A DNA stretch of 63,816 nt, counting the filler, from Dugesia japonica (lineage: Eukaryota), in assembly GCA_001938525.1 (NCBI GenBank). It is 6 parts of 6 records of this genome, joined end to end, with 100 filler letters (N's around TTAATTAATTAA, not from the genome) between each part and the next. Parts side by side here need not be neighbours in the genome. Positions count along the whole stretch, not along the records: positions 32,069 to 42,230 come from MQRL01474310.1; positions 42,331 to 54,793 come from MQRL01598915.1; 4 more parts are not named here. One strand, written 5' to 3'. Under the pieces are notes generated by a model. That model worked only from the letters and a program-made list of their open reading frames with translations. It had not been told where the DNA came from and ran no database searches. Within the stretch, counting starts at the first letter, position 1. Each line of letters opens with the position of its first letter. A program made the position numbers and the translations under genes. This document shows, piece after piece, positions 24,781 to 63,816 of this stretch.

Positions 24781-25536
<756 letters not shown>

Positions 25537-32143: not shown

Positions 32144-35100
32144 ATGTCACCGCATTGGTCAAACTCGAGATGTGCATATTTATCGACTTATTAGCCGCAT
32201 GACCATTGAGGAAAATATTCTGAAAAAGGCAAATGAAAAACGTTGCCTCAACGAAATGGCAATTGAAGGCGGTCAATTTAATATGTCCTTTTTCAAGTCA
32301 AATACCCTCCAGGATATTTTCCAAGCTCCTTCTGGATTTGAAAATTTAACGTCTTTAGGTAAAGAAACAGACCATATAAAAGTCTATAAAACAATTCGTG
32401 GGCGAACTATTCATTGGAAAGGAGATAATAGTATTATCAACATTCGAGCTAATAATGAAAATATGGAAACTAAAGATAAAGTAATCGATGCAACTCAATT
32501 TGAAGCTGCTTTAGAGGAAGTAGAAGATGAAAGTGACCGATTAGCAGCTAAGATAACTAGAGCAGAAGCTACGGCTGATTTAGTAGAATTTGATGAAACT
32601 GTACCATGGGATGATAGTGAAGAGTGTTCAGGAAAGAATGAAAACGAAGAAAACAAATTCAGATCGGAAATGGAAGTTCAACTTCAAAATTTCAATGCTC
32701 AATTAAATCCTCTTCAAAAGTATGGTGTAAGTTGGATTGAACAATCATGTGAAATCGTATTGTGTTCTCAAATAGAACTAGAAGAGGTTAGTATTTTTTT
32801 AAATACATTTTAATAAAATATTGGTTCCTAGACTCAAATTGAAAGCAATAAACAAGCATGGGAACTTGAACACATAAAAGCATTACATGAAGATGAGGAA
32901 GAAATAAAAAATATGGAAGAAGATGATATGTTGTATATATATGGACCCTATGATCCATATGCAGCTCAGAAAGAAGAATTAGAAAAGCTACGTAAAGAGG
33001 AGGAATTGCAACAATTACTTGACTTGCGCAAAGAAGAGGAAATGCTAAAAATAGAAAAAGATAAAGCAGCAGCACAAGCGTGGGCTCAAGAACAACATAG
33101 GAATGCATTAAAGAGAAAATCTGAAGTTATTATTGAAGTGGGGTCGTCTGAAAATACGAATAATACAGAAATGCCCAGAAGTTCCAAACAAAGAAAAGTA
33201 AATAGATTGATAAGTTAATGACGTTAACATTGGAAAATGTAATAGGTTATCGTACCACGATTGGAATTCCCCGATGAATCTATCACTACCGTAAAAACGA
33301 TAAACACTTGCATAGATGAAGTCGACCAGCCATTAATTTCCTCGAGTTCTAGCTCAGTGATCAATGACAAGCCATTTTCCACCCGGAGAAAAATTGGACG
33401 TTCTCCATGGAAGAATATTTCTCAGCGGTCATCCTCTGTAAAAAAAATGATAATCATTCGAATTTTTATATTTCATACTTTTAGGATAGAATTTACTCAC
33501 CTAAAGAACAAGAAACAATTAAAAACAATAGTTTCTCACGGAGAAATAATTCANNNNNNNNNNNNNNNNNNNNNNNNNNNNNNNNTTACAGGATTTTTAG
33601 ACTGATAAAGAAGTTGGCTGTAATATAGTGGCACAATCAAAAGCTTTTCCAAGAAGACGTTTCAGTGAATTCAATGAAAAAGTAAAACATTAGTCATTTC
33701 ATTGATTTTTTGAAGTAACATAATTATGTTTGAAGGATGTAGAGAAAAAAGATGATTGTGATTATAATCCTTCTCGGAGATCGTATTCAAGATCCGATCG
33801 TGCAAGTAAAGATTCTATGAAAAACACAATGGTAATTTATTTTATTTATTTTTAAAACAAACAATTTTCTTTGATAAATTTTTAAATTATTGATTTCATA
33901 AAAATTTTACAGAAATGAATTAAATCAAATTATTTTTTGAAAAGGTTTTAATCATTTTATGCTATTAATAATAACACGGTAAAAAAATACTAATATCAAG
34001 ATGGTAAGACAATAATTTCGATTTTAAAATGAAATAACTCAAAGAAAACTAAACTTTATTAATTAAAATACCAACTATTACAATCAACACATGCTTGCCA
34101 GCGAAAAACAAGCTTTCTCATACCAGTCGTATGGAAATCCTCTGATCTGGAATCAATAAATTCACAAATGGCATTTAACACAGAACCTTGATTTTTCAAG
34201 ACTTTTCCATCTAAGAAAACTGCAAGATTTCTAAAAAAAGTAATAATCAGTTGGTGGGAGGTCCTGCAAGTTGGAAGTTGAGCAAAATTTCGCAGCTTAA
34301 GTTATGTAACCGTCGAATTGTCATTTGCGCAACATGTGTCCGAGAATTGTTATGGAGTACAATAGGACGTTCTGTAGAGTAAAGGTGGATGAAAAAGTTA
34401 ACGACAAAAAATACTAATATCAAGATAGTAAGACAATAATGCCCGCTTTTGACCTTCAATTTTAAAAGGAAATAACTAAACTTTAAATGACAACTAAACT
34501 TTATTAATTAAAATAGCAAATATTACAATCAACACATGCTTGTCAACGGGAAACAAACTTTCTTATACCAGTCGTATGGAAATCCTTTGCTCTGAAATCA
34601 ATAAAGTCACAGATGGTATTTTCCACAGAATCTTGATATTTCAATACTTTTCCATTCAAGAAAACTGCAAGATTTTTAAAAAAGTAATAGTCGGTTGGTG
34701 GAAGGTCCTGCAAGTACGATGAGCAAAATTTTGCAGCCCAAGTAATGTAATCGTCGTATTGTCATTTGCGCAACATGTAGCCGAGAATTTTCATGGAGAA
34801 CAATTGGACGTTCAGAGTAAAGGTGAATGAAGAAGTTGAAACGTTTTTTGCATCTCGTCTATTAATTTGCAGTATTTGTCCGCTGTAATAGTTTCACTCG
34901 GAAAGAGAATGTTATAACGGAAAATACCTCCAGAATACTATTAAACGCTTACCATAACCTTCTTTGAATGAAGTTTGAATTTTGGCAATTGTTGTCGGGC
35001 TTGGTTATGGTGGCACGTCACTATCCGATTGATGAAAGGGTCGTAGATATTCCGGAGATGAAGAAGGCTTCAAAACTCCGACCTTTTCTTTTGAAGCCTT

Positions 35101-38100
35101 TAAACCAAGTTGATATTGCAGCTCTGTCAATGGTTCCCAAGTCTTTTACTGCACAAATTTAGGTTGATGTTGTTCGCGCACTTGTACCAGTTTTCAATGA
35201 AATTTAATTAAGGTTCTAATAGTAAATTTTCCCTCCTTTATATTTTACCAAAAAACATGAATAAACACGAAGTATACAATAGAAAATGTCAAACATANAT
35301 TTAATTGAAAATAATACATGATTATGTGACAAAATAATAAATCGATAAAAAGAATTCACAGAGAGTGTCTGTGAGCATTTAGGACACTATTATTCAAAGT
35401 ATTCTGATTAATTTATAAAATTTTATTTCAAACCAAACGAAATTATTATAAAATATGCTATATTTCTGTATTCATAAGATATATTTTTCAATATTTTGTT
35501 TCATTAACATAATTTTTCAGGAAACGAGCAATAATTTTTCTCCAACTAAAAGAGAATTTTCATATCCAAGAAGCACAGGACGTTTTTCTTTGAAAAACAT
35601 TTCGGTAAATTACTTTTATTTAATTTATTTAAAAAAAAATTTAGATCAATAAATCTAAATCACCTAATAACAAANNNNNNNNNNNNNNNNNNNNNNNNNN
35701 NNNNNNNNNNNNNNNNNNNNNNNNNNNNNNNNNNNNNNNNNNTGGATTTATTCATTATTTATTATCTTTCTTTAAGACATCTAAAGAACTAGAGAATCAC
35801 TCCGATCATATCGATCAAAAGGTATTATTTATCATTTATTTTTCATTCTTACTGATTTAATTCTTTTATTAAATATTATCTATTCTTCTATGAATTACCG
35901 TGTTTTCAAGAATCATTTTTGCAAAAATATCTGTTTAAAAATTAAAATTTTTATTCAGGGATTAGCACTTTTCAAATCTATATATTTCTGTTATAAATTG
36001 ATAAGATTGCCATTAAATTACAAAAAATTGATATATTTAAAAGAAGTAATCATTTCGCGAAAGTTCTTCAACTTAAATTAAAAGCTTTTTTGTTAAGTTT
36101 GTGACTTGCTTGTATATTTTAATGAAAAAGATAAAAAGCATTCTTAAATTTAACACTAGAACTACCGACAATATATACATAAAAATGACCGATAATGGTT
36201 AATAAAAGATACAAAATAGAATTACTTTTGTCTTAATGAAATTTTAGTTGAAATGAAATCCTCAATATTAATTAAAGCTATCTAATTAAAAATCTAAAAT
36301 ATTAATTTTCAAGATAAATATTGAAACCAGTCATTTTGACTGGTTCGGTAGTTCTAGTGTTTCCAGTTCTAGTGATTCCATGCATCGACTGAAAATTAAT
36401 TTTTTATGATTTGTTTTACAAGCACTTGCCCACTTGTTATGATCTCAAGCAAAAAAAATCATTTGCAAATCGATTTGATAAATTTACAAACACACATATT
36501 TGAAGAATAAATTTCATAATATGGGTATCCAAAAATTTATCGAAATTAGATGATTTTCGAAAAGTTAACATGATTAGGCACGCATGGAATGTAAATAATG
36601 CCATTTTTGGAAGTGCTTATGTTTATGAGCAACTATTTACCGCAATGAAAATAATAAAAAGTGATACAACCGTTTTAGACTAAGTTACATACGATTGGAA
36701 AGCTGTGTGCGAGTTTCTTTGTTATCTATATCTGCAAGTGCAGACCAATTGATTTCAAAGAAGCAAGCTCACACTTCTCATTAATATTTCTCTGTTTATA
36801 TTTCTATTAGAAAGTCTTTATTTTTTATTTTTATGCTCATATTTTAATGTTACATGCGATCATAACAAAATTTTTAAATTTGAAATTAACCCTTTGTAAA
36901 AATAATTGATAAATTTACTAAGGCTATCTATTAATTCTTTTTCAAAATTTAAGAAAGGTTATAATCGTAGAAATAAATGTAAATTTGATTTTCATAAGTT
37001 TTGACATTTGAGTAGTGAATTGACAATTTTTATTTTACCAAATCTAACAATAATTATGTATTAAATTTTCTTATTAATACTAAATTATGATTTTTCTTGT
37101 GATAGAACCATATTTCAATCAATACTTTGAATCGTATTGGTTCAAAGTGACATTTAAAAAATTTACTATATAATTCTAAGTTATATGGAATCTTTGACTA
37201 TAGATGATTTTCCCCTCCAAAATTTCGATTCATGTCAGAGCTAAAGTTAATATTTTGCTATATTTTCTAAGGCGGTTATACATATATATGTCAGTTTAGT
37301 TTTTTTTAAATTGTTTCATTAAATTATTTTTGTATTATTTTTACTATTAAATGACAGCTTAGCCTTTTCGTTATTGGAAGCGTATGTATATGTTTTTGTA
37401 TAAGTTTGCTCTATAAACGAAGAGCGTATGTTTCCGATTGTTATTTTTTGTATGTTTGAGAACGAGAAATATAAATATGTTTATTATGAAAAATATTTTT
37501 TGCTTAGCATTTTGATGTGTTTTTTACCTTTAAAATACTACGTAACTAAAGAGTTAAACAACAGTTTCGTGCAAGTCTTAATCTATTTTACATTTTTCAA
37601 TNAAGATAACACTTTCGTTAAATTAAAAAAAAATTAAGCTATACAACAGTATTTTCTATTAGCGTCAACATTCTCTTTTTTTAAGTAAATTACCAGCATC
37701 TATTTAAGGATCTTACCTATATTCAAATAGTTTTTGTGAAATATTAATTTAAATATTTTAAATTTAGCAAATTCATTTTAATCGATCTCCCGATGAGAAT
37801 ATTGCTCCTTATTCGAAAGAAATTTTTTGTTCATCCGTTTTATCAAGTCCTTTCAAGACTGGTAGAAATGTATGATATTTTGATTGAGTTTCAGATTTAA
37901 TTTTTCTACGTTTTATCGAATATTTAAGATTTTAAAATACTTATTAAATTGTAATTATTAATTCATGTAGTCTTAGAGACAATTTGACATTTATTGTTTT
38001 CTTCAACCGTGTTCATATTTATATAGAGTAAAATTAATGGCTTTTTATGTAGTTTATGTTTAGAATGTTTGGTGAATTACTAATGTATATATATAAACTA

Positions 38101-40546: not shown

Positions 40547-42673
40547 AAAAAAATCTATTTAAAGAGCTCTTTGCAAACAATTATATTTAAACATTTGTAT
40601 TTGTGAATAATTTTTAATTATCAGATTCTGTATGTTTTTAAATATTAAAAAATTTAAAAATTTATATATAAATTGGTTTCTTAATTTTATTTTTTTAAAG
40701 TTTATTTATCGATTATTTTAAATACAGAGTAGGCCAAAAGTTACTTAATTTCTATCCAAAGTCGAAATTTGTGAACGCTCTGACGATCAGCATTTAAAAG
40801 ATATAATTTAAAAGGTGTCACTGAAATTTAACGTAAAAATAAAAATTATTTGTTACATTTTGAAATTTTTATTAAAAGAGGTAGCAAGTGTGACTTGGAA
40901 TTAAATAAATTCAAATTGTTTTTTTTTCCTCACAAACGACACCAGAACAGATTTGGAAATTCAATTTAATTAATCAAAAATAATTATCAGTAGGTCGATA
41001 GTGGCGCATGGGGACACCCCAGGGTTTTTTAAGGTCAATTTTACGCGTTTTGATCGGTTGAATTTTTTTGTGTGCCGATGATTTACTCATTACATAATCA
41101 CCTGATATTGAATTTTTTGTTTAAATTGACAGATTTTTTGTGTTTAAATTGATAATTAAATTTTGAAAATAAACTAGTTTTTGGTTTAACGCGGAATATT
41201 ACTCTGAACAAGAATATCAGCAAATAACTTTACACACCAAAGAAAATGAAAAATTTTAAATAATCAAGCACAGTTAAATAAATTTACCTCGAGCAATATT
41301 AAATTCGGTTGCTTCTGGGCAATATTAAAATCATTATCCCCCGAACAGACGTAATATTAATGTTAATATTAGTTGCACCGGGACAATCTTAATAATAATA
41401 ATATATAAGTAAATCAGAACGCAAGATTGATTGTTGATTAAACACATCATCAGTCATTTCAATCTTGATCTTCATTACAAATTAGATCTTAACAAAAAAT
41501 ATTTTTAATTTTAATTAACAAAATAAATTACCTTAAAATGTGCTTTTCATCCGAGTCTCATTCATTACGAGATCGAATAATATCCGCATAGCATGCTTAT
41601 GTTTTTGTTTTTACTATTTTGTCGTCATTATAAAACTAGTGATTTTTCTTTTCTATTCTAAATTGTTTTACTTAGACTTGTTGACTGTTATTTTAACAAT
41701 CAAGGTTCAACTGATTATTAATGTCAGCACTCTTAGCATTCATATTATTTGATTCGCTAAGAATATTACAACATTTTGGTCTCAAGAAAACCTGTTCTTT
41801 TTATTTATTTCTATTATTTTCATCCTTAAACTCTTCTACTACCGAATGTAGATCCATGCTGTACAGAGTGTGGTCTGGTGATTAATTTTAGGTATCTAAT
41901 AATCGATCTTTTACCATCAGTGACAATAACTTTTCTAACTTAATGTTTCTAACTTCTCAGGTAAAGTTATCAGATTCATATCTCACTATTTTCTTGTTAA
42001 CTATACTCCGCCAGCTCAATGTATACCCTGGTTTTGAGGGTATGAAGATATGAGAGTTGGAGGCCAAAGTGGAATGGCTCTGCACTGAGAACAAGCAACT
42101 GAGTAATAGGATACACAGTCGACCATCAACGTTCTCCTCAGTTTCTCGAACCAGAAAAGCACGGAAAATCTTCATAGACTTATCCGAAAATGATATGTTT
42201 GACAACTGAATTCTTGTTACTTTGTCAGCANNNNNNNNNNNNNNNNNNNNNNNNNNNNNNNNNNNNNNNNNNNNTTAATTAATTAANNNNNNNNNNNNNN
42301 NNNNNNNNNNNNNNNNNNNNNNNNNNNNNNAATTTCTTTAAAAATTTTTTATTTTGTTTTGTGTTTTTTTTACATATAATTTATGTTAAAAATATATATA
42401 TTATTTTTTTNNNNNNNNNNNNNNNTTAAAATTCATTCAAAAATGAACTAATTTTACACAATATTAAAAATTAAATTTTTTTCTGAACTAAAAGTTTTTA
42501 AAAGTTTGTAATTACCTGAAATGTAGCAATAAGGTACACAATTTAGTTTTTGAGTAGCTCAAAATGTAAAGTAGAGCATAGTTGATTAAATTGAAATTAT
42601 AGTATGGAGTAGTTGAATAAATTTGATTTTGGTATGGATCACCATAATTTTTATTGTAGTATTTATTTAGTAA

Positions 42674-43204
42674 AATGAAACAGAAACAAATGAAAATGAA
42701 TCGACATCTAACAGTAAACGTGGATCTTGACGACCGAAGTGCGGAGGTACCGGCACAAACAATTACCCAGATCAACCTTTAAATCCTTATTTTACAATAG
42801 AGAAATTGTTGGACAAACACTGCAGAAGCGTAATGAGAAATTCAGATGTATTAAATGAACAATTACAACAAACCCGACAATTAAATGCAAGCCTTGTGGA
42901 GAATCAAAATTTTTATGTGATGCAGATACATCGATTGAATAAGATATTGGAAAATCAGAGACGACAGATTACCGAGAATCAGAATTTTTACCTACAAACT
43001 TTGAGAGGAACAAACAAAATAGTAGAGGATCTAAGACATCAAGTGGAGGAGTTACAAGGCTATAAAGCAGAGCTGGTTTTATCCCAAAATAATCGACTAC
43101 CGAATATTTCCGGCATCCTGAACCCTATCGAGACGAGTGAGAGGGTGTGGTACGGAGAAGAGAGTAATGTATGACAATGGATGCCAAGATGTAGAGTACT
43201 GTAA
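42674..43204 (+). pseudogene. Orphan coiled-coil gene (array unit 1) with internal ENQNFY repeat
   Basis: The frame of ORF 42806-43174 extends upstream to a TTTAG acceptor at 42670 with one internal stop. The product is heptad-rich and contains ENQNFY twice. Confidence 0.55.
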
Positions 43205-43351
43205 ATTATGTGTTAAATAGTAACTGTATTACTATGCGAAAAAAAACATGTATTATAAAAACTAAAAACATTAAAAGTATAGTAAAAGTATATTGACAAC
43301 TATAATTATTTGATCAGCGCTTAATCAGAATAATTCCAATTTGTATATAGA

Positions 43352-43723
43352 ATGTCTGAAGATTTTTGAAGAGTGTGGAGCTGTGTTATGGATACGATAA
43401 TGATGGAGAAATCAAGTTTAGAACAGAAATCAATCGCAGAATTACAACAAATTAATCAAAAGATGAAGCATGGTAATGTGTCATATTTCGAGGAAATATT
43501 TGGTTATCAAAATGCCATCTTGAGAATAGAGGGAGTATTGACAATGCAACAAGCAAATAAAGATGATAAAAAGTGTGGAGAATGTTAAATGGAAGCATTT
43601 TCAGTATTAAATTTACCATACGTGCATGTAGCAGTTTGTCAGAAATGTCATCAAAGAAACGAGTTCAAACAAAGTGTAGTATGTAAACGGCCAATTGAGG
43701 AGTGGTATGTGATGTATCTATGA
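43352..43723 (+). pseudogene. Small protein with C-terminal IAP/MDM2-type RING finger (decayed)
   Basis: Read-through gives MSEDF*RVW...DDKKCGEC*MEAFSVLNLPYVHVAVCQKCHQRNEFKQSVVCKRPIEEWYVMYL*. This fits CxxC-x(n)-P[C>Y]xHxxxCxxC-x8-[C>S]xxCxxPI at the extreme C-terminus. Confidence 0.75.
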
Positions 43724-43924
43724 GTGGGATACATGGTTAAATTGTAAATAAACGCAAATTTAGGATACAGTACAGTTAAAGTAACAAAAGAAACAACTCT
43801 ATACAATTTGTAAATATTAGTCTCAATTAAAATTTGGTTAACCAGTAAATTATATAATTTGTAACTCCCAATGTCTTAATGTGTAAAGATTCAATATTAT
43901 GTTACTTGTATTTTAATTAAGAAA

Positions 43925-44790
43925 ATGACATGCAGATATCAAAATAGTATGAATCGACAACGAGTCGCGATTAATAGATATTGTGAGAAGAGTAACCCGA
44001 CCAACAAAGACAACTCCCGTCAAAGTTACGAATCGAAAACCCATGAGAACAAAGTGAGTGAGCATAAAAACGGTGTAGAGTCACCGAAGTTACAATCAAA
44101 GATAGTCGAACGAGAGAATCAAGTTGAAAAGTTGGAAATCCAATTACAACAATCCAAGTTCAAAACCCAAGGCTACGACAAGTGATTGGAGGGCCTGAGA
44201 TCAGTGGAAAAAGGAATATTTAGCCAAAGAAGAGAAAATCCATCAACTACAACTGGAGCTATCATCCATCCGAAAAAGGCACCTAGAGCAGGTCAAAGAG
44301 TTAGAAACTGAGATCAGAGGGCAGAGTAAAAAGATCAAGATGCTTGAGAAAACAGTGGAGAATAATAATGAAATCCGAATTACCAACCAACGAATGCACC
44401 AAGAAAAAATAAGCAAATTACAGGAAGAGATCGATCGTTTAATAAAAGATACTCAGGACAAAAAATCCGCAAGAGAACAAAATGTTATCGAAATTCAAAA
44501 CCTGGAGAATGCAGTGAAGCACCTCCATGATGAAAATAATTTTCTAAAAGAAACCCCTATTTGAGTACTAATTCTTCCACGTCAAGTAAAAGCTACCAGC
44601 GTAGAACAAATATTTTACACTTATAAAATCCATATGCAACCTGTAGCTCCACAAATCAGTTTATTGGACCAAAGAGCGAATCAGAGAAAGAAGAATCAAG
44701 TGATTCAATCATCCCGCCAATTCACCAATCCAAGTCAATCCAATCAATGGCCTAATTCAGCATCCGAAGAAGATTTATTCTGGCGTCTCT
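43925..44790 (+). pseudogene. Orphan coiled-coil gene (array unit 3), frameshifted
   Basis: Consecutive E/K/Q-rich heptad ORFs at 43925-44185 and 44340-44564, followed by a P/Q-rich tail. Confidence 0.5.
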
Positions 44791-45517
44791 AACCCAGTCG
44801 TTTCGAGCAGTTCTAGGCTGCGTCCGACTCTGTAAATATTGTTCGTATCTAGGTGTTATAACTCAATATATTTGTGTGATTGAATAATTTCAAGTAACCA
44901 AATGTCCTCTGACAGTCCTATATTGTCCATTTGGTCATGTTATTGAACTATAAACGTCCTATTATTTTCAATCTATACCCAACCGATTCAGTGTTCCGCA
45001 GTTCTATGCTGCATTAATACCTATACTATCCTCGAGCCGAAGGTGTCCTCCGAATCCAATCTGTCGATTAAGAGAAGATCCAAACCAGTAGACTTTATGA
45101 CTATTTAGTGATTCCATGGTGATGAGAATTCAACATTTTTTATTGTATTAAAGTGATCAGGTTATTTAAAGTGACAATTATGAATAAAACATTGAATTTT
45201 AAGTGATCCAGTGGTGTGATTGAATATGATAGTAAATCTGCATGTGCATTATTATATTTGATTGAAATAATGTATTTTTAATTTTATCATTTTCTCTTCT
45301 TATTTCTATCTGTGTTTATTTTTATGACCTATTAGTATCTTGCTTGAGGAATCTGTCTAACCTAGGTATGAGTGATAATCGAGCTCTCGTGAATTTCGTA
45401 AAAGGTTAAAAGAAAAAGAATTTTAAGTTTCCAAAAATAGTGAAGAGTGAACACAAAGTTGATGGTCTGGACCAAATTATTGATTATTATGTACAGGATT
45501 ATCATTATTATTATGTA

Positions 45518-45562
<45 letters not shown>

Positions 45563-45724
45563 NNNNNNNNNNNNNNNNNNNNNNNNNNNNNNNNNNNNNN
45601 NNNNNNNNNNNNNNNNNNNNNNNNNNNNNNNNNNNNNNNNNNNNNNNNNNNNNNNNNNNNNNNNNNNNNNNNNNNNNNNNNNNNNNNNNNNNNNNNNNNN
45701 NNNNNNNNNNNNNNNNNNNNNNNN

Positions 45725-45784
<60 letters not shown>

Positions 45785-46976
45785 GGAAATATCGTAAAAA
45801 TAACGAAAAATAAAATTCGGGCGTGGAAGACCCAAATTTTATGTCACAAAATTAAAAATTGTATGCGATAAAAGGAAAAGAAGAATTAAATAATAAAAAT
45901 AAACTACGATATTATAATATTATTTTAAAGGGGTATCTACGACCCGTTTCATTTATTATAAATAACGCTAAATAACGTTTAATATTAATTATATTTTAAT
46001 TGATGCTGGTCCAGTCATCATTCCTTGTCTAGCTGAGGAAAAATAAATCGAAAATAGTCAGCAAAACAGCTGAATCATTTCCTTCCAGACAAAGACTTTG
46101 CATGGAGATAAAGTTGATGATTCTGAAGTCACACGATGTGACTGACGACAACAAAACCTAGCAGGTTGATGTGCACCAAAATAACAAAAAATCATACTGA
46201 GAAAATGAATGCACATCAACAGTGGCTAGGAGTCGATCAATTACAGGGGTGGAATTAGGAAGGGCGAATAATGATTGGCCGGCTAATATGAAGCCACAAT
46301 CTGGAGAAGGAGAATTCAAATAAAATAAAGTGAATTTTTAAATTCAGGCAGAGTTTTTGAATTGAAAACAATTGTGACTTTAAAAAGATTTTTACTTTAT
46401 AAACCATTTTACTTTAAACAGAATTTTTACTTTGAAGAGATTTTTCTAACGAATTTGCGATTAACAGTTGTCATATTATTTTGGGACATTAGATATCGAG
46501 CTAACAACATTAAAAAATTAATTTACCAGATTGTAAAGTGGACCTATAAACTTAAAAGTAAATTTCATTTTTGTTTTAACATGTTAATTGCTCCAATCTT
46601 TATGTACCGAGTGTTCTTTAAGCAATGATGATCGTGCTCCCGAGAATGAAATAGTTATGAGAAAATAATTCGGCAAGAATACCTAAATATGTATTGTAAA
46701 CTTGTCGAGAGCTCGATGATCATGCGTTACGCGAGAACAAGATAGTTTTTGTTTTTGGAAGGAATGGTTTTGTAAATGAGTGCAGTTATGTCTTAAAAGC
46801 TTTTATTGTTTTGAACGAAAATATCAACATCATATAAACGGAATTTGATTTTTCTTTAATTAGTTGATGATTTTCTTTTAATGCTTTCGAATAATAATAT
46901 TTTTTTATTTAATTATATGTTTATTAGATTATTTTAATAATGTGAATAATTCAAGTTGTAGTCATATAATAATAAG

Positions 46977-47601
46977 GACATCTTCTGAGAATTCCGGAAG
47001 ACGGGAGACGAGCGAAGATGGTAGTTTCTAGCTGATATCTTCTCTGGTTCGCCTTCTAGAAATGAGGATGAAGAACAGAAAGGCCGCAGGCTGAAGGAAT
47101 GTCCGCTGTTTATTATTTTTATTCTTATTTGATTGAAAATATATTTAATATTAATAGTAGAAAATTAGATACTTTTTATTTAATAGAAAATAGACAGCGT
47201 ATTTCAAGGCACAGATTCCATTGGTGCTCTCCAATGACGGCGACGACGGGACATTCTGTATCCCCTGGAGAAATTCAGTCGAGCTTCTAGATTATCAAAA
47301 AGCCGTTTACGAGAAGGAGAAACAGGAGATGCGAGCGGGTCAGCAAGTGTTAATAAAGCCTGACATTGAGTTGCGGCGACAATGGAAAACCGTCTATGTG
47401 GAGAAGGAAAAGTTGGAGGTGCAATTGGCACAGCAGAGACTGGAGATATGAGTGATTGCCAGTGAAATGATCGAGCACCGCTACACAATGGAGAAGATCG
47501 AGGGGAAAATTTTAGAGCAGCTGATGGATGATAAGGGGGTCGTGACCGAAGCACCGGACCCCGTGATCATTAAAACGGAATCGTTGTCGACTGTAAAATA
47601 A
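46977..47601 (+). pseudogene. Orphan two-exon coiled-coil gene (array unit)
   Basis: GC-richer coding-like blocks separated by an AT-rich intron-like spacer (~47108-47186). ORF 47221-47451 reads through one TGA to ~47600 and is followed by AATAAA. Confidence 0.5.
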
Positions 47602-47907
47602 ATGTATTGATGTTGTACAAATGAAAGTGTTATTTATTTAATTTCTTAATGTGATATGTATGTCACATTGTGGTTAAAAGAAATTTTAGTGTCTGCAGAG
47701 GCAGTAATAAGTTTAAACGAATTTTTACTTTTTATTTGGCCGTTGTAAAAAACGCAAGCACGGTTTTAATACTGCGTCTTCAATAATTTGCTGTCGTGGA
47801 TAAGCAATTTACCTATAATTTTTGTCTTTTACTTGATTATAATCACTTATCTTAGTTAAACTTATTACAATTAAATTATGACTAAAAAGGTTTTTGTTTT
47901 TTTAGTA

Positions 47908-48228
47908 GTGAATAGATCTAATGAAGAAAAGATGCTGAAAAAAGATGTAATCGCCGCGCAGTAGAGGTGGAAGTAGGAACGGAAGGAGTTAAAACATGAA
48001 ATTTTGAAGCTGTAGGGACAAGTGATGAAGTCTGTCGTGAAATATAATCAGATCAAAGAAAAAGAGCTGTCCCCTCAGCACGCGAACAGGCTGATGGCTG
48101 AGGTTATAAAGACTTACACCGACCGCGAGACCTCAATGTTTATTTCGTTAAGAACACTCTGGTTAAATTACCGATCGCCAGAGGAATCGACCAAAGCAAT
48201 GGAACCAACCGTAGATCCATACGCTTAA
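47908..48228 (+). pseudogene. Orphan coiled-coil gene homologous to 62883-63241
   Basis: Frame AQ*RWK*ERKELKHEILKL*GQVMKSVVKYNQIKEKELSPQHANRLMAEVIKTYTDRETSM, with AATAAA right after the stop. Confidence 0.55.
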
Positions 48229-48564
48229 TAAATGAAGCCGTAGCTGTTAATAATTGAATAAATATTATGGATGTTGATTGATTGGGTCAGTTTAATTATG
48301 AATTTTATTTGTTGAAGTGAAACTATAATATTAAACTTTTACTGAGCGCGTAAAAGTGATTGCTGTCAGGGTTCGTGGATTCTGTGAAAAAGACGCGATA
48401 CCACAAAGTCGCGCTGAACCCGTGGAAAGGAGGGGCACGTCACAGAGGTGATGCAAACTTTTGAGGTTTTTAGGTTGCTCCTAGATACTTCGATAAAAAC
48501 GATAATTATTAAAAGTGAGATCAGAGCAGCTAAAGAAAAAAGTTAAAACATCAAAATCCTAAAA

Positions 48565-50165
48565 ACCCATCAGATATAAAATTGGAATATAGGAAAGAAT
48601 CGCTTCATACAAATGTGGATATGTTGTCAAGGAGTGAATGCGGTACATATGCACAATGTATAATGTTACATGAAGATCCCAAAAGTAGAAATTAAAAACA
48701 AGGATCATAAATATAGTAGATATTCAAGAAAAACAAGGCAATTTTGGTGAGAATGATGAGGGAACACGGATACCTGATGATAAAGTAGAAGATGTTATAA
48801 TGAGGATACATCATTTTTAGTGTCGTGCTGAAGCAAAAAAAGTAGCAGCGTATAAAAAGCATAATTATAATGCAAAACATTTGTAGAGCAAAGTACAAGA
48901 GGTTGTCCGAAGCTGTATAATATGTCAGAAAGCTAAAGTGTTGACAATAAAAACAAAGGAAGAAACAAAAAAGACGCAGCCAGCCGAAATGTATAAACTG
49001 TTATTTATAGAAGTGTGTGGACCACGGCCGGAGACTAGAGTTCGGAAAAAACATGTTCTCGATATAATAGACCAATGCAGTAAGTATGTAGCCTTGATAG
49101 AAATGACAAAACAAGAGGAAGATACCATAAGGAAAGCAATATTGGAGAAGTGGATATTAAAGTTTGGGTGTCCGAAAGAAATTCAAATTTATTGTGGAAG
49201 AGCTTTTGAGTCAAAATCAATGAAAGGTTTTGCAGCTGAACATGGAATTACACTCAGGTTTTCGAGTCCATGTCATCATAACACAAATGGACAAATCGAG
49301 GGATCTGATTAATGCAACACTTAAAGAAAGGAAAACTTCAGATTTAGGTGGATGTTTTGCCTGAAATAGAATTTACCTTAAACGCTACAAAACAGAAAAC
49401 TATCGGGAAAATCTCTGCTGAAATCATATTTGGAAAGAAAATAAGCAAAAAAATGGTATGAAACCAATACTCAAAAAGTGCACAAAGAACAAGAGGAAGA
49501 AATGTTAACCAAAAGACAATTCAAATCGGTGATGAGATCTTAGTGAAAGCTGAAACAAGAAACAAGAACTAAAATCATTGTGAAGGACCCTATAAAATCA
49601 AGAGGAAGATTCATGACAGACGTTACATCCTAGAGGATACAAACAGAAAAAGTCTCGAAAGAAACCTAGAGAAGATCAAAAATTTCTTAAAAAGTGGGAT
49701 GTGAGTATGTTTTAAGCGAGTTGAAATTTTTGTGTGGTTGGTGATCGTTTTTCTTGAAATCTTTTTTGAAAAAGATTTAAATTGAAATGAAAAATTAAAT
49801 GACTAATAAGAAATTGTTTTAAATTTTAATAAGTAAACAGAAAATTTATTTAAAAAATCTGTTTTAAAAAATCAAATGACTAATAAGTANNNNNNNNNNN
49901 NNNNNNNNNNNNNNNNNNNNNNNNNNNNNNNNNNNNNNNNNNNNNNNNNNNNNNNNNNNNNNNNNNNNNNNNNNNNNNNNNNNNNNNNNNNNNNNNNNNN
50001 NNNNNNNNNNNNNNNNNNNNNNNNNNNNNNNNNNNNNNNNNNNNNNNNNNNNNNNNNNNNNNNNNNNNNNNNNNNNNAAACGATCACCAATTTAAAACAG
50101 GAATTTAATTTGTTTAAAAACTCAATTAGTGTTGTTATAGTTTTTTATATTAGTAAATCGTTGTA
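48565..50165 (+). mobile_element. Gypsy integrase region plus 3' LTR (same family as 57102-59590)
   Basis: Integrase core 'IEVCGP..IIDQCSKYV..WILKFGCPKEI..SSPCHHNTNGQIE' and a GPY motif. A PPT-like AAAAGTGGGA is followed by the LTR start TGTGAGTATG at ~49700, similar to 59328. Confidence 0.85.
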
Positions 50166-50243
50166 ATGAATTTAAATTATGATGTTAATGATTCATTGAG
50201 TTTTCAAAACCCAAATAACAATTATGATCTTCGATCATTTCTT

Positions 50244-50795
50244 TTATGTTTTCAGGATTATCAGATGCATCTTTTGGTGTTGTTTATATACTAGAATGAA
50301 TTGTATTTTTATAACCATTTTATCTAACAAGTTTTTATTCCATTTTTGATTTCCAACTAATGTAAAATATTTCCACATTTTAGTTTTTAAAGTTCTAATA
50401 AATCTTTCAGTAAAAACTGATTTACTCTCATTTTCTGTATGGTATAATTTAATATCATTTTCTTCAAGAAATTTATCAAAATATTTTGATCTAATTGATG
50501 ATTCCTTGTCAAACCAAATATAATTTGGAATTCTAAAATTTTCTTCAAATATATTTTCATAACCTTCTTTTAATGATTCGTGATTTTTATTAGTCATTGT
50601 AACACAAAAACGAAATCTTGTATATAAATCAATACAAACTAAAATATAACGAGATCCATCACTTGAGTTTTTAATATCACAACCCCAAGTATTATCTTTT
50701 TCTTTTATTATTACTTTTAGGAAATAATCTTTAAATAATTCCTTAGGAAATAATCTTTATATAATTCCTTGGCAAGAAGTTTCTTTGATAATGTT
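50244..50795 (-). pseudogene. Maverick/Polinton (adintovirus-type) retroviral-like integrase
   Basis: 'LLAKELYK...KVIIKEKDNTWGCD..RYILVCIDLYTRF..PNYIWFDKES..IKLYHTENESKSVFTERFIRTLKTKMWKYFT' is the characteristic Polinton integrase signature. Confidence 0.88.
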
Positions 50796-51220
50796 TCTCT
50801 ATTTTTAGGAATATGGCCAGCACCTAAAATAATTTTACCTTTCATTACTAATTTTACTAAACCTCTTTGTAATTTTTTGAAATAGCTGGATTTTGGATAT
50901 TATTTAAATCATGAATTAAATTTACATCAGCTTAATGCCTTGATCGTATATTTTCATCTTTATAAGATAAATCATGTTTAAAAGCTGCTTCATCAACTCT
51001 ATTAAGTGGTTCTTCTTCAGGTTTCAAATTATTATTTTCATCTAATCTTAAATCTAATCTTGTTCATGGACCTGTATAATTATGGTTAAACAAATGTCTT
51101 TCACCTGGATACTTTTCCCAAGTAAATGGTTTTAAAATTGCAGTCATGGTTTATAAGCTAAATGGCTTAATTTTACTGAATAATAATTTCCTGAATCTAA
51201 AGTTGTTTTTGAAACCATTC
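50796..51220 (-). pseudogene. Parvovirus VP1u-like phospholipase A2 (adintovirus PLA2X)
   Basis: Manual translation: PFTWEKYPGERHLFNHNYTGP*TRLDLRL..EPLNRVDEAAFKHDLSY..SRH*AD..KGKIILGAG. It contains the YxGPG Ca2+ loop and the DxxAxxHDxxY catalytic motif. Confidence 0.85.
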
Positions 51221-51224
51221 TATT

Positions 51225-52490
51225 TAAAAATGAAACTTGAATAGATTTATGTGTAATTAGTTTGTTCAACATATTTACTTCCATTTTTGAAACTAATCTA
51301 CATTCTGGAATATATAATTCTAAAGTTGTTTATTTTAAAGTAGCAGCTGTATATTTATCACCGTAAAATAATAATTTATCATTTGTTTGTCTATTACAAG
51401 TAAATTCAATCATTACATTATATAATAATCTATTATAACATTTTAAAAATGCAAACAAATTTTTTAATGAAAAATAACCTTCAAATTTTTTTTAGAATTA
51501 TAAAGTTTCTTTCTTTTATAAAAACCTAGATTTGCTCCCCAGCTAGTAACATCTAAATCTCCTTTGTTTGTATCTGGAATCCATCCTGATAATTCTCCAT
51601 ATATATTTTTATAGGTTGAACTAGTTGAAATAAAATTCAACATTGTTGATGATATTCCAGGATCATTAATTATTTCCACATCTGAGGATCCTAAAGTTAA
51701 TCTCATCGATTTAAATAAACTTGGAAGCCAATTATTTTACAAAGTTATTTTATCTTTGTGAGCATCTGTAACATCAATCTCTATTTTAAAATATAACATT
51801 GAGTTACAAATGTCTAATGGGTTGGTTGACTGTAAAGATTGAAAAACTATATCACCAGAAGGCATTAAATTACTAATTGATCCAGATGAAGGTGAAATTA
51901 TCAAAACAAACTAAAAGTCCAGTTGTTGGATTCCGGATCTTAAAAAATATTTTATCTTCAATACAAACGCCGGTTTCGGCAAAATAGGAGCAGTAATGTC
52001 GCAGAAAGATGTCAACGGCAGAGAAAAGGTGGTAGCATACGAGTCATACTCATTAAACAATAATTAAAGAGGCTATTGCGTGACAAGGAAGGAACTTCTA
52101 GCTATATTTTACTTTTGTAAACATTTTAATTATTATTTATTTGGTAGGAAATTTTGGTTACGCACAGATCACATGGAACTAGAGAAACCTAGGACGTGGA
52201 GGCTGAATGTAGTAGAGAAGAACCCGGACAGCGAGACATAAAGAATGTCAGAAAAAGAAGCCGAGGAGAAATACTCACACACGTGGTTCCGGAAAANNNN
52301 NNNNNNNNNNNNNNNNNNNNNNNNNNNNNNNNNNNNNNNNNNNNNNAAGATTGAAAAACTATATCACCAGAAGGCATTAAATTACTAATTGATCCAGATG
52401 AAGGTGAAATTATCAAAACATCATTTTTAAGAAAAAAGTGTTAAAAATTAATATTATTATCAATATTTAATTTTGTTGCATCAAACATTT
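51225..52490 (-). pseudogene. Maverick/adintovirus major capsid protein (double jelly-roll), truncated; interrupted at 51909-52346 by Gypsy sequence and a gap
   Basis: 'NNWLPSLFKSMRLTLGSSDVEIINDPGISSTMLNF', 'GFYKRKK', 'YNRLLYNVMIEFTCNR' and 'LELYIP' match the Polinton MCP pattern. It is adjacent and co-oriented with PLA2 and integrase. Confidence 0.7.
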
Positions 52491-52607
52491 TCTTTACTGA
52501 TAAAATAACAAAATAACAAAACCAGATTAATAGTGATAACTACGAATTTTTTGTTGACGAAATGTGTACTGATATTTTTATTGCAAAGCTGTGAACTAAA
52601 AACCTAC

Positions 52608-52805
52608 AAGCCAAAAATACAAGCCAAAAATAAAAGTCAAAAATACAAGCCAAAAACACAAAAGCCTTGGTTCTTTTAATTCTCAATTCTGTTCCACTGG
52701 TATTGACTTATGTTGTACTAATAATGATAACCCTCTTTTTTTCCTATGTAATCACTGCTTAATTTCTGTTCCACTAGTATTAAAATCTGTTGTACTGGTA
52801 TTCTC
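52608..52805. repeat. Short tandem repeats (13-bp ACAAGCCAAAAAT x~4; TTCTGTTCCACTGGTATT-like x3)
   Basis: Directly visible. Confidence 0.7.
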
Positions 52806-52962
52806 TTATCATTTGCACTGTAATGAAGCCAACTCTCTCGGCTCACATTCGTAGTTATCACTATTACTAATATCGTTGTTTTAATATTCAGATTTCGGAT
52901 AGGTAATATTTTGAATTAATAAATTAGTTATGGATTTGACTTCAATTTTAATCAAATTAACA

Positions 52963-54793
52963 TGGTAACCACGCCTGTTGACCCATTGGCCGAAAGATTA
53001 CTACCAAAGATGTTGAGCCGGACGGACCATTTGGAGGTTTTAATCAATCAATGCCAACGGTATTTTGACATTCTGGCAAAGCCGAAAAGATGCGTGAAAC
53101 GTTAATATACAGAATGATCGAGGAAAATTGGATTGCCGACTAAGAAAGAACGGTAGCACAAGGAGAAGGGTTCCAATCATGATTGAGAATCGCATTTGAG
53201 AAGCCCAAGCAGATTGGGAAGAGATGCTCTGATATAAAAAAGGATCAGAGAGCATCCAGCTATACTTTCGAGTTGTGAAAAGGAAAATTTGAAAATTATA
53301 TGAAAATCAAATAACCGAAAAACAAATGATCGCAAAAGGTTTGGTATATTGCAGTGGCAATGATGAAATGAACAAGGAAGTGGAAATCCGAGAATAAGCA
53401 TCAGTCTAGGATATTGAGACACTAATGATAAAGATGGACGAAGTACAGACGAAAAGTAATTGTAGAATCAATGCAGTACGAAACTATAATGAAGTACTAA
53501 AAGGAAATAAGAGACAAGTTTGGGCAGTTTAACCGAGAACTGACAGGAAGACCAAATGCGGAGAACCAACCAGAAACAAGACAGAAGAGAAAACATTTGT
53601 AAAAAACACTACCAGAGAAATTCACATTAGACAGATAGAATGTTGGTCGTGTCACAAGATGAAAGACATCAGCCGAGAATGTCCGAACAGAGAGATACTA
53701 AAGTGTTTCACGTGTAGACAGGCAGAGCACATTCATTGATTTTGTCCAAATAGCAAGTGTAGAAAGAAAGGACATTACGCGGTAGATTGTCAGATACAGA
53801 GAATTTACAGCAGTAACAACTTGGAGAGGGACGACCACAGACATCAAAACAGAGTATGGTGTGAAAAATATAGAATGAACGGAATAAATGCAGAAGATCA
53901 GGAAGACACGACAAGTTTAGAGAACTACCCAAATAGACAAGCTCTAGTCAATTAAGTACTGTGACTATGATACCCCAAGTGAACGAGAGAAGTGAATTTG
54001 ATCAGGAAGTGGCAAAGAAGGTATATATATTTTTGAAGAGCGAAGGCTTTAGGACAGAGGAAGAAAGAGACAACAATGTGATAGGAGTAATTGGATACGT
54101 TTCCGGGACAATAATAAACTACGAAAAATGCAGGGGAGACCCAGAGTCACGGTTAGGATAGTTAAACAGGTTTTTGAGTGCTATTTAGATACAGGAGCCT
54201 GAATAAACGTGATGAGTTTGAATATAGCAAAGGAGTTGTAAAAAAACTTAAGGAGCTTTTAAGGGATTTGCAATTATCACCACAAATTCATAGAAGGATA
54301 CTCGGAAAAAGCAGGAATTCTGGGAAAGATGTGTGGAAGAACTACCAAGAAACTAGACTGGAATCAAACAGCAGAGAAAGAATTCGAGAATTTAAAAAGG
54401 GCACTTACTAAAAGTCCAGTTGTTGGATTCCGGATCTTAAAAAATATTTTATCTTCAATACAAACGCCGGTTTCGGCAAAATAGGAGCAGTAATGTCGCA
54501 GAAAGATGTCAACGGCAGAGAAAAGGTGGTAGCATACGAGTCATACTCATTAAACAATAATTAAAGAGGCTATTGCGTGACAAGGAAGGAACTTCTAGCT
54601 ATATTTTACTTTTGTAAACATTTTAATTATTATTTATTTGGTAGGAAATTTTGGTTACGCACAGATCACATGGAACTAGAGAAACCTAGGACGTGGAGGC
54701 TGAATGTAGTAGAGAAGAACCCGGACAGCGAGACATAAAGAATGTCAGAAAAAGAAGCCGAGGAGAAATACTCACACACGTGGTTCCGGAAAA
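52963..54793 (+). mobile_element. Degenerate Gypsy element: PBS-like start, gag zinc knuckles, protease, RNase H
   Basis: ..AACA-TGGTAACC at 52963; CWSCHK..ISRECP and CFTCRQAEH knuckles; LLDTGA*INVMS; FIFNTNAGF..IGAVMSQ..YCVTRKELLAI..RTDH. Confidence 0.85.
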
Positions 54794-54893: not shown

Positions 54894-55111
54894 GCATGAC
54901 TGGAGCGGCTAAAAGATTATATCTCGATAAAACAAAACAATTAACTGAATTACCAAGTACCCGGATTGAAGTTAAAGAAATCCTCACTGAAAATTTTACA
55001 AGCCAAAGAACAAGAAGCCAAGAATTCAAAGAATTTGCAAGAAGACCGCAACACAAAGATGAATCTTATCACACATATGCTAGTGAACTCAAACGACTTG
55101 GTGAGACTTAG
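54894..55111 (+). pseudogene. Retrotransposon gag fragment
   Basis: 'GAAKRLY..EILTENF..EFARRPQHKDESYHTYASELKRLG' fits the R-x-Q-x3-ES-x3-YA-x2-L-x2-L gag motif. Confidence 0.65.
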
Positions 55112-56512
55112 TGAGATTTATTTAAACATAAATTTAAACTTTGATTTAGTCGACTTTTGAAATTTAATAATTTAATAATTATAATAATAATTACATAATA
55201 ATAATGATATTAGTAATTATAATAGTCAAATTTCTGCCAAGCACTATGTTTTCTTATTTTTCTGCTCGTTTTTGTGTTGAATTTTTTTATATTATTTCGG
55301 AAAATTCAGAAATAGCGGCATTGGGAAACTGACGTCATGTATTAAAAGGTTTTTAACACAAACTTATTTTGAATTTATTAAATGAGAATTTCAAGATTTA
55401 TTTATTCAAATTTAAAACGATTTCTATTATTAAATTTAATTTAAATTTAAAATGGTTCGTTTGTAAGGAGGTTTAAATTTATTAAGGAACCCTGAAAGTT
55501 TGACGGTGTTAGTAAGAAGGGGGCGGAGGGTAAAAAAACTTAAAATTCTTGACATAATTAAAGGTCGTTCTCTTAAGAGCTTAGTTCAAGTTTAACTGTA
55601 ATTTATCTTATGATGTCAGGAGGAAACGATAAGACTATTTTATTAATTTAATTGATTTAGATAATTAGAATGAATTTACTTATTTTTTAAAATTAGATTT
55701 CAAGTTTCATTGAATTAAAAATTCAAATTTTTTATTGTATATTAGAAATACGACGGCCGACTTGGAGTAAGCAACTAAATATCACGCTTTAGCCTTTTTA
55801 TTGTTTTGGTAGAACACCCGATATAAAAAGATGAAGACTAAAATCGATAAGTTGTGTATAAATCAAAATAAATATTAGTAAAGTGAATAAAACTCAAGAG
55901 CTTAAGGCATACAGATGCTCTGATTGATGGAACAAATAGAGACAAGTTCAGAATAAAAGATAATACCCAATATAGAAGGAAAGATCATGGAACCCATGAT
56001 CAAGAAAATCAGCGGTGAAGAAATAATTGGTTGATAAAGCAACAGGGCAGGAGAAAGAGCGAAAAGAAAATTGGGCAAGGGTAGGATAAAATAACTCATT
56101 TGGAAGATCAACAGTATAAGAAGAGAGCATTAAATCAACAAAACGAAAAAAAGACGCCAATAATTACCTATGAGAAGAAAGGCTAGAGAAAGTATAAATT
56201 TCAAAAAAGTATCTAGAGTGGAATAAAAAAATTTGAACCAATTTGTAAATTAATTAAGAGAAAATTGAATAAAATAAAATATTAAGTTGTGTAATAAATT
56301 CCTGCGTTATTTATATTTTATGTTTTCCTGCAAATAAGAATATATATGCATTCGAGTTAGTGTTAATTTTAATCAATTTGTAAAAATCATAAAAACATGG
56401 AACTTTTCTATAAAAAATCATAAAAGTGTAAAAACCTTTGTATATATATATATATATTTAAGTATTTAATTTATGTTTTTAAGTAAATATTTTTTATTTG
56501 TTAAATTCCCAT

Positions 56513-57101
56513 CGGTTTCATATGTGTATAAGACTCTATTTGATTCATTGCATGTATTATATGACTTTATATTGTTCATTGTGTATATTGTTTTTCTCTA
56601 AAGGTTGAATTATGTGTATTGTAAAAATATATTGAGTTAATTATGTGTATTATAAGACCGCATTAGGTTAATTGTGTGTATTTATTGACTTTATAGGATT
56701 TATTATATGTATTATATGGTTCTGTTGGGTATAATATGTGTATTATATAACTCTATAGATTTTAGTGTATAAGACCTATTGGTTTTTTATATATAAGACT
56801 ATATTAAGTTATTTATGTGTATTTAAGTGACTTTATTGCGGATATTTGTATATTATACGACTATATTGAGTTTATTATATGAATATATAAGGTATATTAT
56901 GACTATATTGGGTTTATTATACTAATTTAACTGTAAGTATGGAGTTTATGATGTGATTTTACTAGGTCAAGTGAGTTTTTTGTGTGCATTTAATGACTCT
57001 ATTTGTTAATTTTATGTATGTTATGTCTTAAAAGATTTATTGTGTGTATTATAAGTCTTTATTAAATTTATTGAATGTATTATATAACTATATTGGGTTA
57101 A
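56513..57101. repeat. Degenerate ~31-bp minisatellite (consensus ~TGTGTATTATAAGACTATATTGGGTTAATTA)
   Basis: Recurrent TGTGTATT..GACT.TATT.GGTT units, roughly 18-19 copies. Confidence 0.7.
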
Positions 57102-59590: not shown

Positions 59591-59745
59591 NNNNNNNNNN
59601 NNNNNNNNNNNNNNNNNNNNNNNNNNNNNNNNNNNNNNNNNNNNNNNNNNNNNNNNNNNNNNNNNNNNNNNNNNNNNNNNNNNNNNNNNNNNNNNNNNNN
59701 NNNNNNNNNNNNNNNNNNNNNNNNNNNNNNNNNNNNNNNNNNNNN

Positions 59746-59791
<46 letters not shown>

Positions 59792-60029
59792 GTAATAATA
59801 ATTATAATAATAATGATAATAATAATAATAATAATATATATGAGGAAATAATTAGTAATTAATAATATCATCCGATGGAAATTGAGTTATCTGAATATTA
59901 ATATTGAAATTCTAGTATTTCAATATTATTTATCTTATGAAACATGGGTTGTAGAAGTAAAATAAACAATGTCTAAAAATATTAATTGTGATTTGCAAAA
60001 TGATTTACCAATTGAAGATTTACTTAACA

Positions 60030-63241: not shown

Positions 63242-63362
63242 TAGTTGTCGTTGTATAAATAAATGTTTTCATATTAAAATTTATTTTAATTCTCTTACTT
63301 TTGCTTAGTTAATTTGGCCTATCTGTCGCAGATCGAATAAACTAATGTTATATCTTGTTTAG

Positions 63363-63745: not shown

Positions 63746-63816
63746 TTTTTCTGTAAAATACAGTTTTCATTGTTCGACTTATTCTAGCCTTTAATAAATT
63801 CGTGATAATAGGGAAA

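Follow-up and report, generated by a model that had tools for sequence, protein, structure and literature searches.

A co-oriented array of decayed mini-genes in the planarian Dugesia japonica, a candidate accessory module of a large mobile element

In the genome of the planarian Dugesia japonica (assembly GCA_001938525.1) a stretch at 42630-48300 carries six clear mini-genes on the plus strand (U1-U4, U7 and U8) together with two weak ones (U5 and U6), and a second array of similar design (V1-V4) is found on another scaffold. Coordinates refer to the window, the 63,816 nucleotides (nt) of AT-rich eukaryotic DNA analysed here (GC content 0.278, with ATT/AAT microsatellites), which is made up of six pieces of about 9-12.5 kb each, joined by artificial 100-nt spacers (N runs around an all-frame stop). 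Since the window is a concatenation of pieces, long-range order within it is meaningless. The first array lies on the piece at 42331-54793 (12,463 nt), where it starts 300 nt past the scaffold join, its left end being lost, and it is interrupted by an assembly gap within an ATT repeat (45563-45724). Each unit is built as a mini-gene consisting of a splice acceptor, one short open reading frame (ORF), a stop codon and the polyadenylation signal AATAAA, with 100-310 nt to the next acceptor. U4, which is broken by the ATT repeat and the assembly gap, has a weak coding signal (stop-depletion P=0.83), yet it is counted among the clear units on its complete acceptor, stop and AATAAA signals.

A frame-and-strand coding scan was trained on ORFs located elsewhere than in the array (2,101 codons). 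Of 70 array windows it scored 19 at z of at least 2, all 19 of them on the plus strand, compared with 13 of 191 in control DNA, where 4 were on the plus strand. The preliminary description of this DNA had claimed at least five compact, co-oriented plus-strand units, and this was borne out, as were the GC-richer coding blocks, which at 0.30-0.49 alternate with spacers at 0.19-0.26. The GC content at third codon positions (GC3) is 0.29-0.61 in the array blocks versus 0.23 in a host SRCAP exon. Internal stops number 0-2.8 per 100 codons in the units, about the 2.4 seen in the Gypsy reverse transcriptase (RT)-RNase H (RH) of the window, in agreement with the joint decay proposed earlier. Scattered stops had been ascribed to all units, which holds for whole units and not for individual blocks: the main frame of U1 is open over 147 codons and U3a is without internal stop. 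Stop depletion taken alone is significant in 2 of 7 blocks (U1, P=0.005; U3b, P=0.001; 0.13-0.95 in the remaining blocks) and individual units are marginal in a simple heptad test (P 0.03-0.17). The failure of several blocks in the stop-depletion test would suit a single ordinary coiled-coil gene of the host, split into exons, or blocks that resemble ORFs by chance, and so would the Atlas neighbours of U3b, which are host coiled-coil fragments. Against this stand the 19/19 strand bias and a stop and AATAAA belonging to each unit, and we regard the explanation as highly improbable.

The units do end near AATAAA, as had been claimed. Within -3 to +63 nt of the terminal stop, and with U3 and U6 excluded for their unclear last stops, the signal is present in 5 of 6 U units (U1 being without it) versus 351 of 1464 control stretches (P=0.004); over both arrays it is present in 9 of 10 (P=2e-5). 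The intron-like spacer said to precede the units was recovered in part, in that an acceptor AG opens U2, U3, U4 and U8, with an ATG 1-3 nt behind it in the first three, and that U1, U5 and U7 do not conform. Over both arrays an in-frame ATG lies 1-7 nt past AG in 5 of 11 units (U2, U3, U4, V1 and V2; 71 of 245 ATGs in the control), AG is followed by an in-frame TG in 3 of 11 (U8, V3 and V4), and U1, U5 and U7, again 3 of 11, fit neither pattern. A donor-like site preceded by A is found upstream of the acceptor at 54-55 nt in U8 and V4 and at 91 or 31 nt in V3, so that splicing would complete the start codon of these three units. At control TAG sites TG follows in 14 of 167, and 2 of 167 also have a GT donor preceded by A. 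More generally, all 8 of the 8 acceptors are preceded by a donor-like GT at a distance of 44-64 nt (control 123/247; P=0.004 binomial, 0.014 by shuffling), for a pattern and window picked after inspection, with five windows tried, of which 44-56 nt gives 6 of 8 (P 0.026-0.059). This spacing is near the 45 and 48 nt of the two putative host introns in the window. A third remnant, coiled-coil-like and located at the end of the preceding scaffold (41943-42210), shows the splice pattern cleanly: an ATG opens an exon of 18 nt, which is followed by a canonical donor, an intron of 54 nt and a short second exon in frame. A scan of the whole window for this grammar, which was fitted to the arrays and is hence circular, gave 8 plus-strand and no minus-strand matches, 6 of them in the arrays, 1 in a CtBP exon and 1 at a gag start, and missed U2, U4 and V1. 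The spacers have only AT-rich words in common; CTTAGTTAA, present at U8 and V4, was within chance (10 of 100 shuffles).

Seven of eight pairs have a distance of 103-182 nt from AATAAA (in U1, from the stop) to the next acceptor or start, and the remaining pair has one of 308 nt. With the common strand, this accords with the spacing used to recognise flatworm operons (same strand, at most 300 bp, median 99 bp; PMC12582326, excerpted, as are all PMC sources cited here), and a pseudogenised host operon or lineage-specific gene cluster, served by spliced-leader trans-splicing and later ringed by transposons, could have left such an arrangement. We find this origin very unlikely, since the units are unrelated orphans that decayed together, whereas trans-spliced genes in Macrostomum are mostly conserved (PMC8629364), since their GC3 is above that of the host exon, since the donor-like sites above all eight acceptors favour cis introns, and since a second such array lies 14 kb off on another scaffold. 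Pure trans-splicing with a leader-supplied ATG was ruled out, as the phases misfit.

The second array repeats the acceptor-ORF-AATAAA grammar, with AATAAA after 4 of 4 stops, and its units have no sequence similarity to U1-U8. Units of the first array were considered as paralogues of one another or of the second array, and no sequence match was obtained. The heptad signal of V3 exceeds all 150 shuffles; the coding scan is weak (4 of 22 windows, 2 on the plus strand). The array is preceded by a Gypsy RT cut at about 61398 and then by a leader of 600 nt, in which a CRE-plus-TATA-like site lies at 61608. A CA-TGG site at 61445 in the same leader is a candidate LTR end plus primer-binding site. 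Coordinates are collected in Table 1.

Table 1. Features of the two arrays, their immediate surroundings and the joins of the window
Feature	Position	Strand	Details
U1, orphan coiled-coil gene of ~165 codons	42671-43174	+	main frame open 42731-43174; start region broken; internal 25-residue repeat
U2	43349-43752	+	acceptor AG ends 43350, ATG 43352, stop 43721, AATAAA 43747; two internal stops
U2 domains	RING ~43565-43702	+	helical N-terminal half; C-terminal IAP/MGRN1-type RING (Pfam, PDB matches)
U3, long coiled-coil gene	43920-45188	+	acceptor ends 43921, ATG 43925, AATAAA 45183
U3, breaks	near 44190; 44800-45130	+	frame change near 44190 and one internal stop; 3' part 44800-45130 without clear last stop
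U3, basis	44199-44789		stop depletion P=0.001; Atlas neighbours generic coiled coils
U4, short gene	45364-45903	+	acceptor ends 45365, ATG 45368, stop 45869, AATAAA 45892 and 45898
U5, weak GC-richer block, multiply broken	46003-46329	+	AATAAA 46319 and 46324 at end; no Pfam match
U6, doubtful GC-richer block without consistent frame	46590-46840	+	GC, coding scan; no Pfam match
U7	46975-47602	+	two GC-rich blocks around AT-rich intron-like stretch ~47108-47190; second block helical with one internal stop; AATAAA (47597) overlaps stop; coding z at most 5.8; heptad P=0.033
U8, helical ORF	47855-48262	+	donor-like site 47855, acceptor 47908 then in-frame TG; three internal stops; stop 48226; AATAAA 48227 and 48257
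LTR-terminus-like motif	48432-48444	.	G-run and CGTCACA (minus strand TGTGACG); closes CpG-rich stretch from ~48340
5'-truncated Gypsy integrase, neighbour and not carrier	48572-49746	+	rve E 1.8e-9; purine tract 49690-49699; LTR start 49700
Second array, other scaffold	62000-63816	+	V1 62008-62190, V2 62328-62678, V3 62885-63241, V4 63365-63745
Artificial 100-nt spacers	10999, 20691, 31969, 42231, 54794		joins between pieces

Searches of large protein sets covered U1, U2, U3a, U7 and U8, while U4-U6 and V1-V4 were compared with Pfam only and U3b with Pfam, PHROGs and the Atlas. A phmmer search with the frame that contains U1, U2 and U3a over 1.84 billion representatives yielded a sole match, P0001 (E 3.8e-10, 40% identical to U1), and a profile search added P0002 and P0003 to the family (3 of 74 candidates). 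These proteins are intact single ORFs of 150-159 amino acids (aa) from three sources, 38-40% identical to U1 and 63-69% to each other, and all have a non-helical C-terminal motif and an end point in common with U1. Because these stand-alone, complete relatives end at the same C-terminal point, U1 belongs to a small conserved orphan family rather than being an internal exon of some long host gene, and for U1 the host-exon explanation is largely refuted. In GTDB genomes 101 pattern matches to the family were obtained, of which none was confirmed, and the best Atlas score of P0001 (0.86) was to unnamed clusters. For U1 AlphaFold predicts one helix (residues 23-121, with 89 residues at a pLDDT of at least 90). 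Modelled in three copies, U1 is predicted as an in-register trimer with a score of 0.68 versus 0.01 for the best control, contacts agreeing between runs to at least 85% and pLDDT being at least 81. The trimer mark was calibrated on two copies; among microbial homo-pairs 21 of 30 attained it, among animal pairs 7 of 16 and among single chains 0 of 23, and the U1 score may mirror likeness to solved coiled coils. A match of the U1 profile to influenza HA2 helices (E ~5e-4) was read as redundancy-inflated heptad similarity and not as kinship.

Coiled coils plus a RING had been proposed for the array. The RING is seen in U2, where Pfam zf-C3HC4_3 matches at E 2.6e-4 and, with 21.2 bits, falls short of the cut-off of 27; a coiled coil is seen in the trimer model of U1, the heptad test leaving the individual units marginal. 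The best PDB matches of the U2 RING are cIAP1 (E 0.067), MGRN1 (E 0.46) and cIAP2, over a range of E 0.067-0.66, and 6 of 8 zinc-ligand positions are kept. Past the last cysteine U2 has a tail of 12 residues, the cIAP1 chain one of 13; in RINGs of the IAP and MDM2 classes such a tail mediates dimerisation. U2 is like the IAP/MGRN1-class RING E3 ligases in RING spacing and terminal tail, and differs from them in the missing BIR, in its weak scores (E at least 0.067) and in the loss of two ligand positions. No BIR domain was matched by Pfam in the array, so U2 does not qualify as an IAP protein. An MGRN1-like motif before the RING lost its score once the RING was removed, and a second RING suspected in 44840-45130 had no Pfam support. 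In the Atlas, the scores of U3b (0.94-0.96) were to coiled-coil families of mixed kind and its recognition stayed under the threshold, which is uninformative, and PHROGs gave weak matches of unknown function only, the best at E 0.0012.

In 12 frame translations of 42426-48600 the Pfam matches were restricted to the RING and a SNARE-type coiled coil, and no gag, pol or transposase domain was found, just as the preliminary description had it. We consider a mobile origin of the array very probable. The reading we lean towards is that a large mobile element, probably a long terminal repeat (LTR) retroelement, carried the array as a module of accessory genes, now decayed. Of the mobile multi-gene cassette suggested earlier, the multi-gene part holds, as the units are unrelated, have their own stops and AATAAA and, judging by the U1 relatives, are not the exons of one host gene; the word mobile is an inference.

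An LTR-class carrier is slightly favoured overall. It is hinted at by the motif at 48432-48444, whose G-run and CGTCACA resemble known LTR ends. The motif lies about 175 nt past the second AATAAA of U8 and is the sole match in the window, 1 of 100 shuffles having one, for a pattern chosen after the site had been seen; its hairpin z is only -1.9. An LTR terminus would then be placed at about 48444, and remnants of a compact, unrelated Gypsy family would surround the array. In plus-strand orientation the motif may be the right end of an LTR into which the array extends. On the minus strand it may be the left end, with the array antisense to its carrier, in which case introns and eight poly(A) sites could survive retrotransposition. 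Since introns and sense poly(A) sites are not easily maintained through genomic RNA, a module antisense to the gag-pol of its carrier, or within the terminal repeat, would be the most plausible placement.

Immediately downstream of the array lies the Gypsy integrase, which shares 84% identity with 58176-59378, the homology beginning abruptly at 48572. This family is compact, with RT, RH, integrase, purine tract and LTR at 57105-59330 and gag, protease and RT contiguous at 59969-61398, and without room for the array, so that adjacency names no carrier. The neighbouring Gypsy was rejected as carrier for the contiguity of gag, pol, purine tract and LTR in its other copies. The same family occurs twice, at 48572-54700 and 57105-61398, in a permuted order (pol end, LTR, gag, pol start), and both copies have an assembly gap in the LTR, which may reflect tandem elements or a scaffolding artefact. 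Positions 52957 and 60024 were tried as LTR end plus primer-binding site, and both are in or at the gag frame.

Several observations weigh against the accessory-module reading. A second LTR, a target-site duplication, a primer-binding site and a linked gag-pol were not found in the window, the array DNA has no repeat copies elsewhere in it, and the compact Gypsy family next door identifies no carrier. Poly(A) sites and introns in sense orientation argue against passage through RNA. No homologue of U2 was found by word search or by phmmer over the 1.84 billion representatives, none of U3a by the same phmmer search, and none of U7 and U8 among 86 candidates from a word search of proteins shorter than 189 aa only. 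The structure model of U2 (pLDDT 43) is unusable and its RING falls below the Pfam cut-off, and P0001-P0003 each sit on one contig of 1.1-1.8 kb without gene context. Further points against it are the deviating starts of U1, U5 and U7 and the choice of the donor and LTR-end patterns after inspection.

Introns and internal poly(A) sites, both retained here, are kept at no cost by elements that replicate as DNA, and the array may be cargo of such an element, be it an endogenised large DNA virus, a Polinton/Maverick-like element or a Helitron. This is an unlikely origin, if one to be taken seriously. The U1 relatives are intronless ORFs in sample-derived collections, IAP-type RINGs and coiled coils are common in baculovirus-type genes, and a Maverick-like remnant lies about 1.8 kb off on the same scaffold. 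That piece is on the other strand, beyond the Gypsy integrase, and unlike the array in composition (GC 0.27 and CpG observed/expected 0.56 versus 0.33 and 1.04). The array itself is strictly co-oriented across 5.7 kb and has no viral or DNA-transposon core gene, with none of the Polinton/Maverick hallmarks (PolB, integrase, ATPase, protease, capsid and terminal inverted repeats) found in it and PHROGs giving nothing beyond the weak matches mentioned. The remnant occupies 50200-52700 on the minus strand and contains an rve domain (E 3.5e-9), a PLA2-like sequence (E 5.1e-7) and 13-nt tandem repeats.

As an accessory module of an LTR retroelement, the array would express each unit as a separate mRNA, polyadenylated and spliced from a tiny first exon across an intron of about 50 nt, the start codon of U8, V3 and V4 being completed by splicing. 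The products would probably be non-enzymatic factors that interact with the host: coiled-coil adaptors or decoys that oligomerise, along with a dimeric RING ubiquitin ligase that would act on apoptosis or silencing proteins, a theme in common with the BIR/BCL2/RING cargo of the planarian element Burro. Going further, one may conceive of an undescribed flatworm LTR retroelement lineage whose batteries of unrelated mini-genes are cut from one long precursor, each with its own poly(A) site and acceptor, a conjecture to which we give rather little credence. The acceptors would in that case be spliced to a leader shared across the element, from which some genes would take the first base of their start codon, or be served by the spliced-leader machinery of the host; accessory transcription in such a retroelement would be organised like an operon, in the manner of a virus.

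Other parts of the window contain host genes and transposon debris. Host SRCAP/Swr1 exons with a 45-nt intron are located at 32136-33218 (E 9.4e-26), and a CtBP-like exon at 24760-25080 (PDB CtBP1, E 2.9e-23) is broken by stops and frame changes and is a pseudogene. An open frame of 406 codons at 4846-6066 on the minus strand, with a hydrophobic C-terminal half, has no significant Pfam match. On the array scaffold, duplicates of 100% identity at contig ends (51910-52296 and 54407-54793; 51835-51908 and 52347-52420) probably reflect local mis-assembly. Transposon debris at 9376-10396, 26772-28087, 33988-35200, 13249-13604 and 16200-18000 includes a non-LTR endonuclease-like tail (duplicated locally), another Gypsy pol and putative hAT-like and mariner-like pieces. 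At 54894-57100 a gag-like fragment, an AT-rich stretch, the remnant of one small charged ORF (55900-56190, AATAAA 56222) and tandem repeats of 31 nt (56520-57100) abut a Gypsy RT and resemble the 3' region of large LTR elements.

LTR elements have been described with accessory ORFs before, usually one or two orphans whose role is not known. If the accessory-module reading is true, a grammar of 6-8 separately processed mini-genes, encountered twice in 64 kb with unrelated sequences, would mean that an element family solves multi-gene expression like complex viruses do. It would also provide small testable proteins, a trimeric coiled coil and a RING ligase, for how elements handle host apoptosis and silencing in stem-cell-rich animals, and flag a source of orphan gene models in planarian-type genomes. 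No description of this architecture was found in the literature searched, most subscription papers and the Repbase reports lying outside it, and it may already be annotated in planarian repeat libraries. The excerpts of PMC8532177, PMC11410931 and PMC10558129 held nothing further on such arrays.

The preliminary description had named Burro as a possible carrier. Burro is recognised by a polyprotein with Gag, AIR1, Smc, MATH, BIR, ankyrin, BCL2, env, protease, dUTPase, RT, RH and integrase, by a length above 30 kb, by paired LTRs and by thousands of copies. Its RING, Smc, MATH, BIR, ankyrin, BCL2 and env domains reside mostly in one polyprotein of 4,873 aa (ORF1), and its internal region of up to 25 kb includes accessory ORFs, tandem repeats and about 10 kb outside the polyprotein ORF (PMC6431247). 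The array could lie outside ORF1, though the polyprotein itself is missing here. Decayed Burro copies are reported from Dugesia japonica (PMC6431247), and the RING, coiled coil and apoptosis theme would fit. The link was not upheld, as MATH, BIR, ankyrin, BCL2, dUTPase and env are without a match in the array and in the flanking retroelement pieces scanned. The RING of U2 is moreover a C-terminal one of IAP type in a gene of 123 codons and not part of a polyprotein, and two unrelated arrays point to a broader class. That the array is an accessory or terminal region of Burro proper, a case included in the reading we lean towards, is therefore quite unlikely; if it were the unannotated flank of Burro, a gap in a known giant element would be filled and no new class added. 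Compared as systems, Burro/GYPSM1 and the array are alike in the likely kind of host, in RING, coiled-coil and apoptosis/ubiquitin cargo and in the accessory ORFs that Burro has beside gag-pol (PMC6431247), and unlike in that the known extra domains of Burro are mostly fused in one polyprotein whereas the array has 6-8 separate genes of 100-300 codons with their own acceptors and poly(A) signals.

Orphan accessory genes beside an LTR, often coiled-coil or SMC-like, are described for the plant elements Grande, RIRE2, Retand and PvRetro13 (PMC7264820) and as the ORF3s of bdelloid elements (PMC5408684). Such additional ORFs can be sense or antisense, and some have their own promoter or a spliced message (PMC7264820, PMC5408684). 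The cases described in these excerpts have one or a few extra ORFs, whereas a battery of separately polyadenylated mini-genes is present here. The env of Drosophila gypsy gains its start codon by splicing, as AT + G (PMC2585583), comparable to the A + TG suggested for U8, V3 and V4, but in gypsy a single env gene goes with a single poly(A) site located in the LTR, and none of the array units was recognised as env. Bdelloid Terminons (PMC6431247) are likewise giant retroelements with many accessory ORFs, including coiled-coil proteins. The array differs from them in having no Penelope-type RT, no enzyme cargo and no hammerhead ribozyme; on 41800-63816 Rfam gave a single match, at chance level, though decay could hide a ribozyme there. 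By analogy with these systems, and short of membership in a named family, the array would appear to function in the manner of accessory genes found in LTR elements and in complex viruses.

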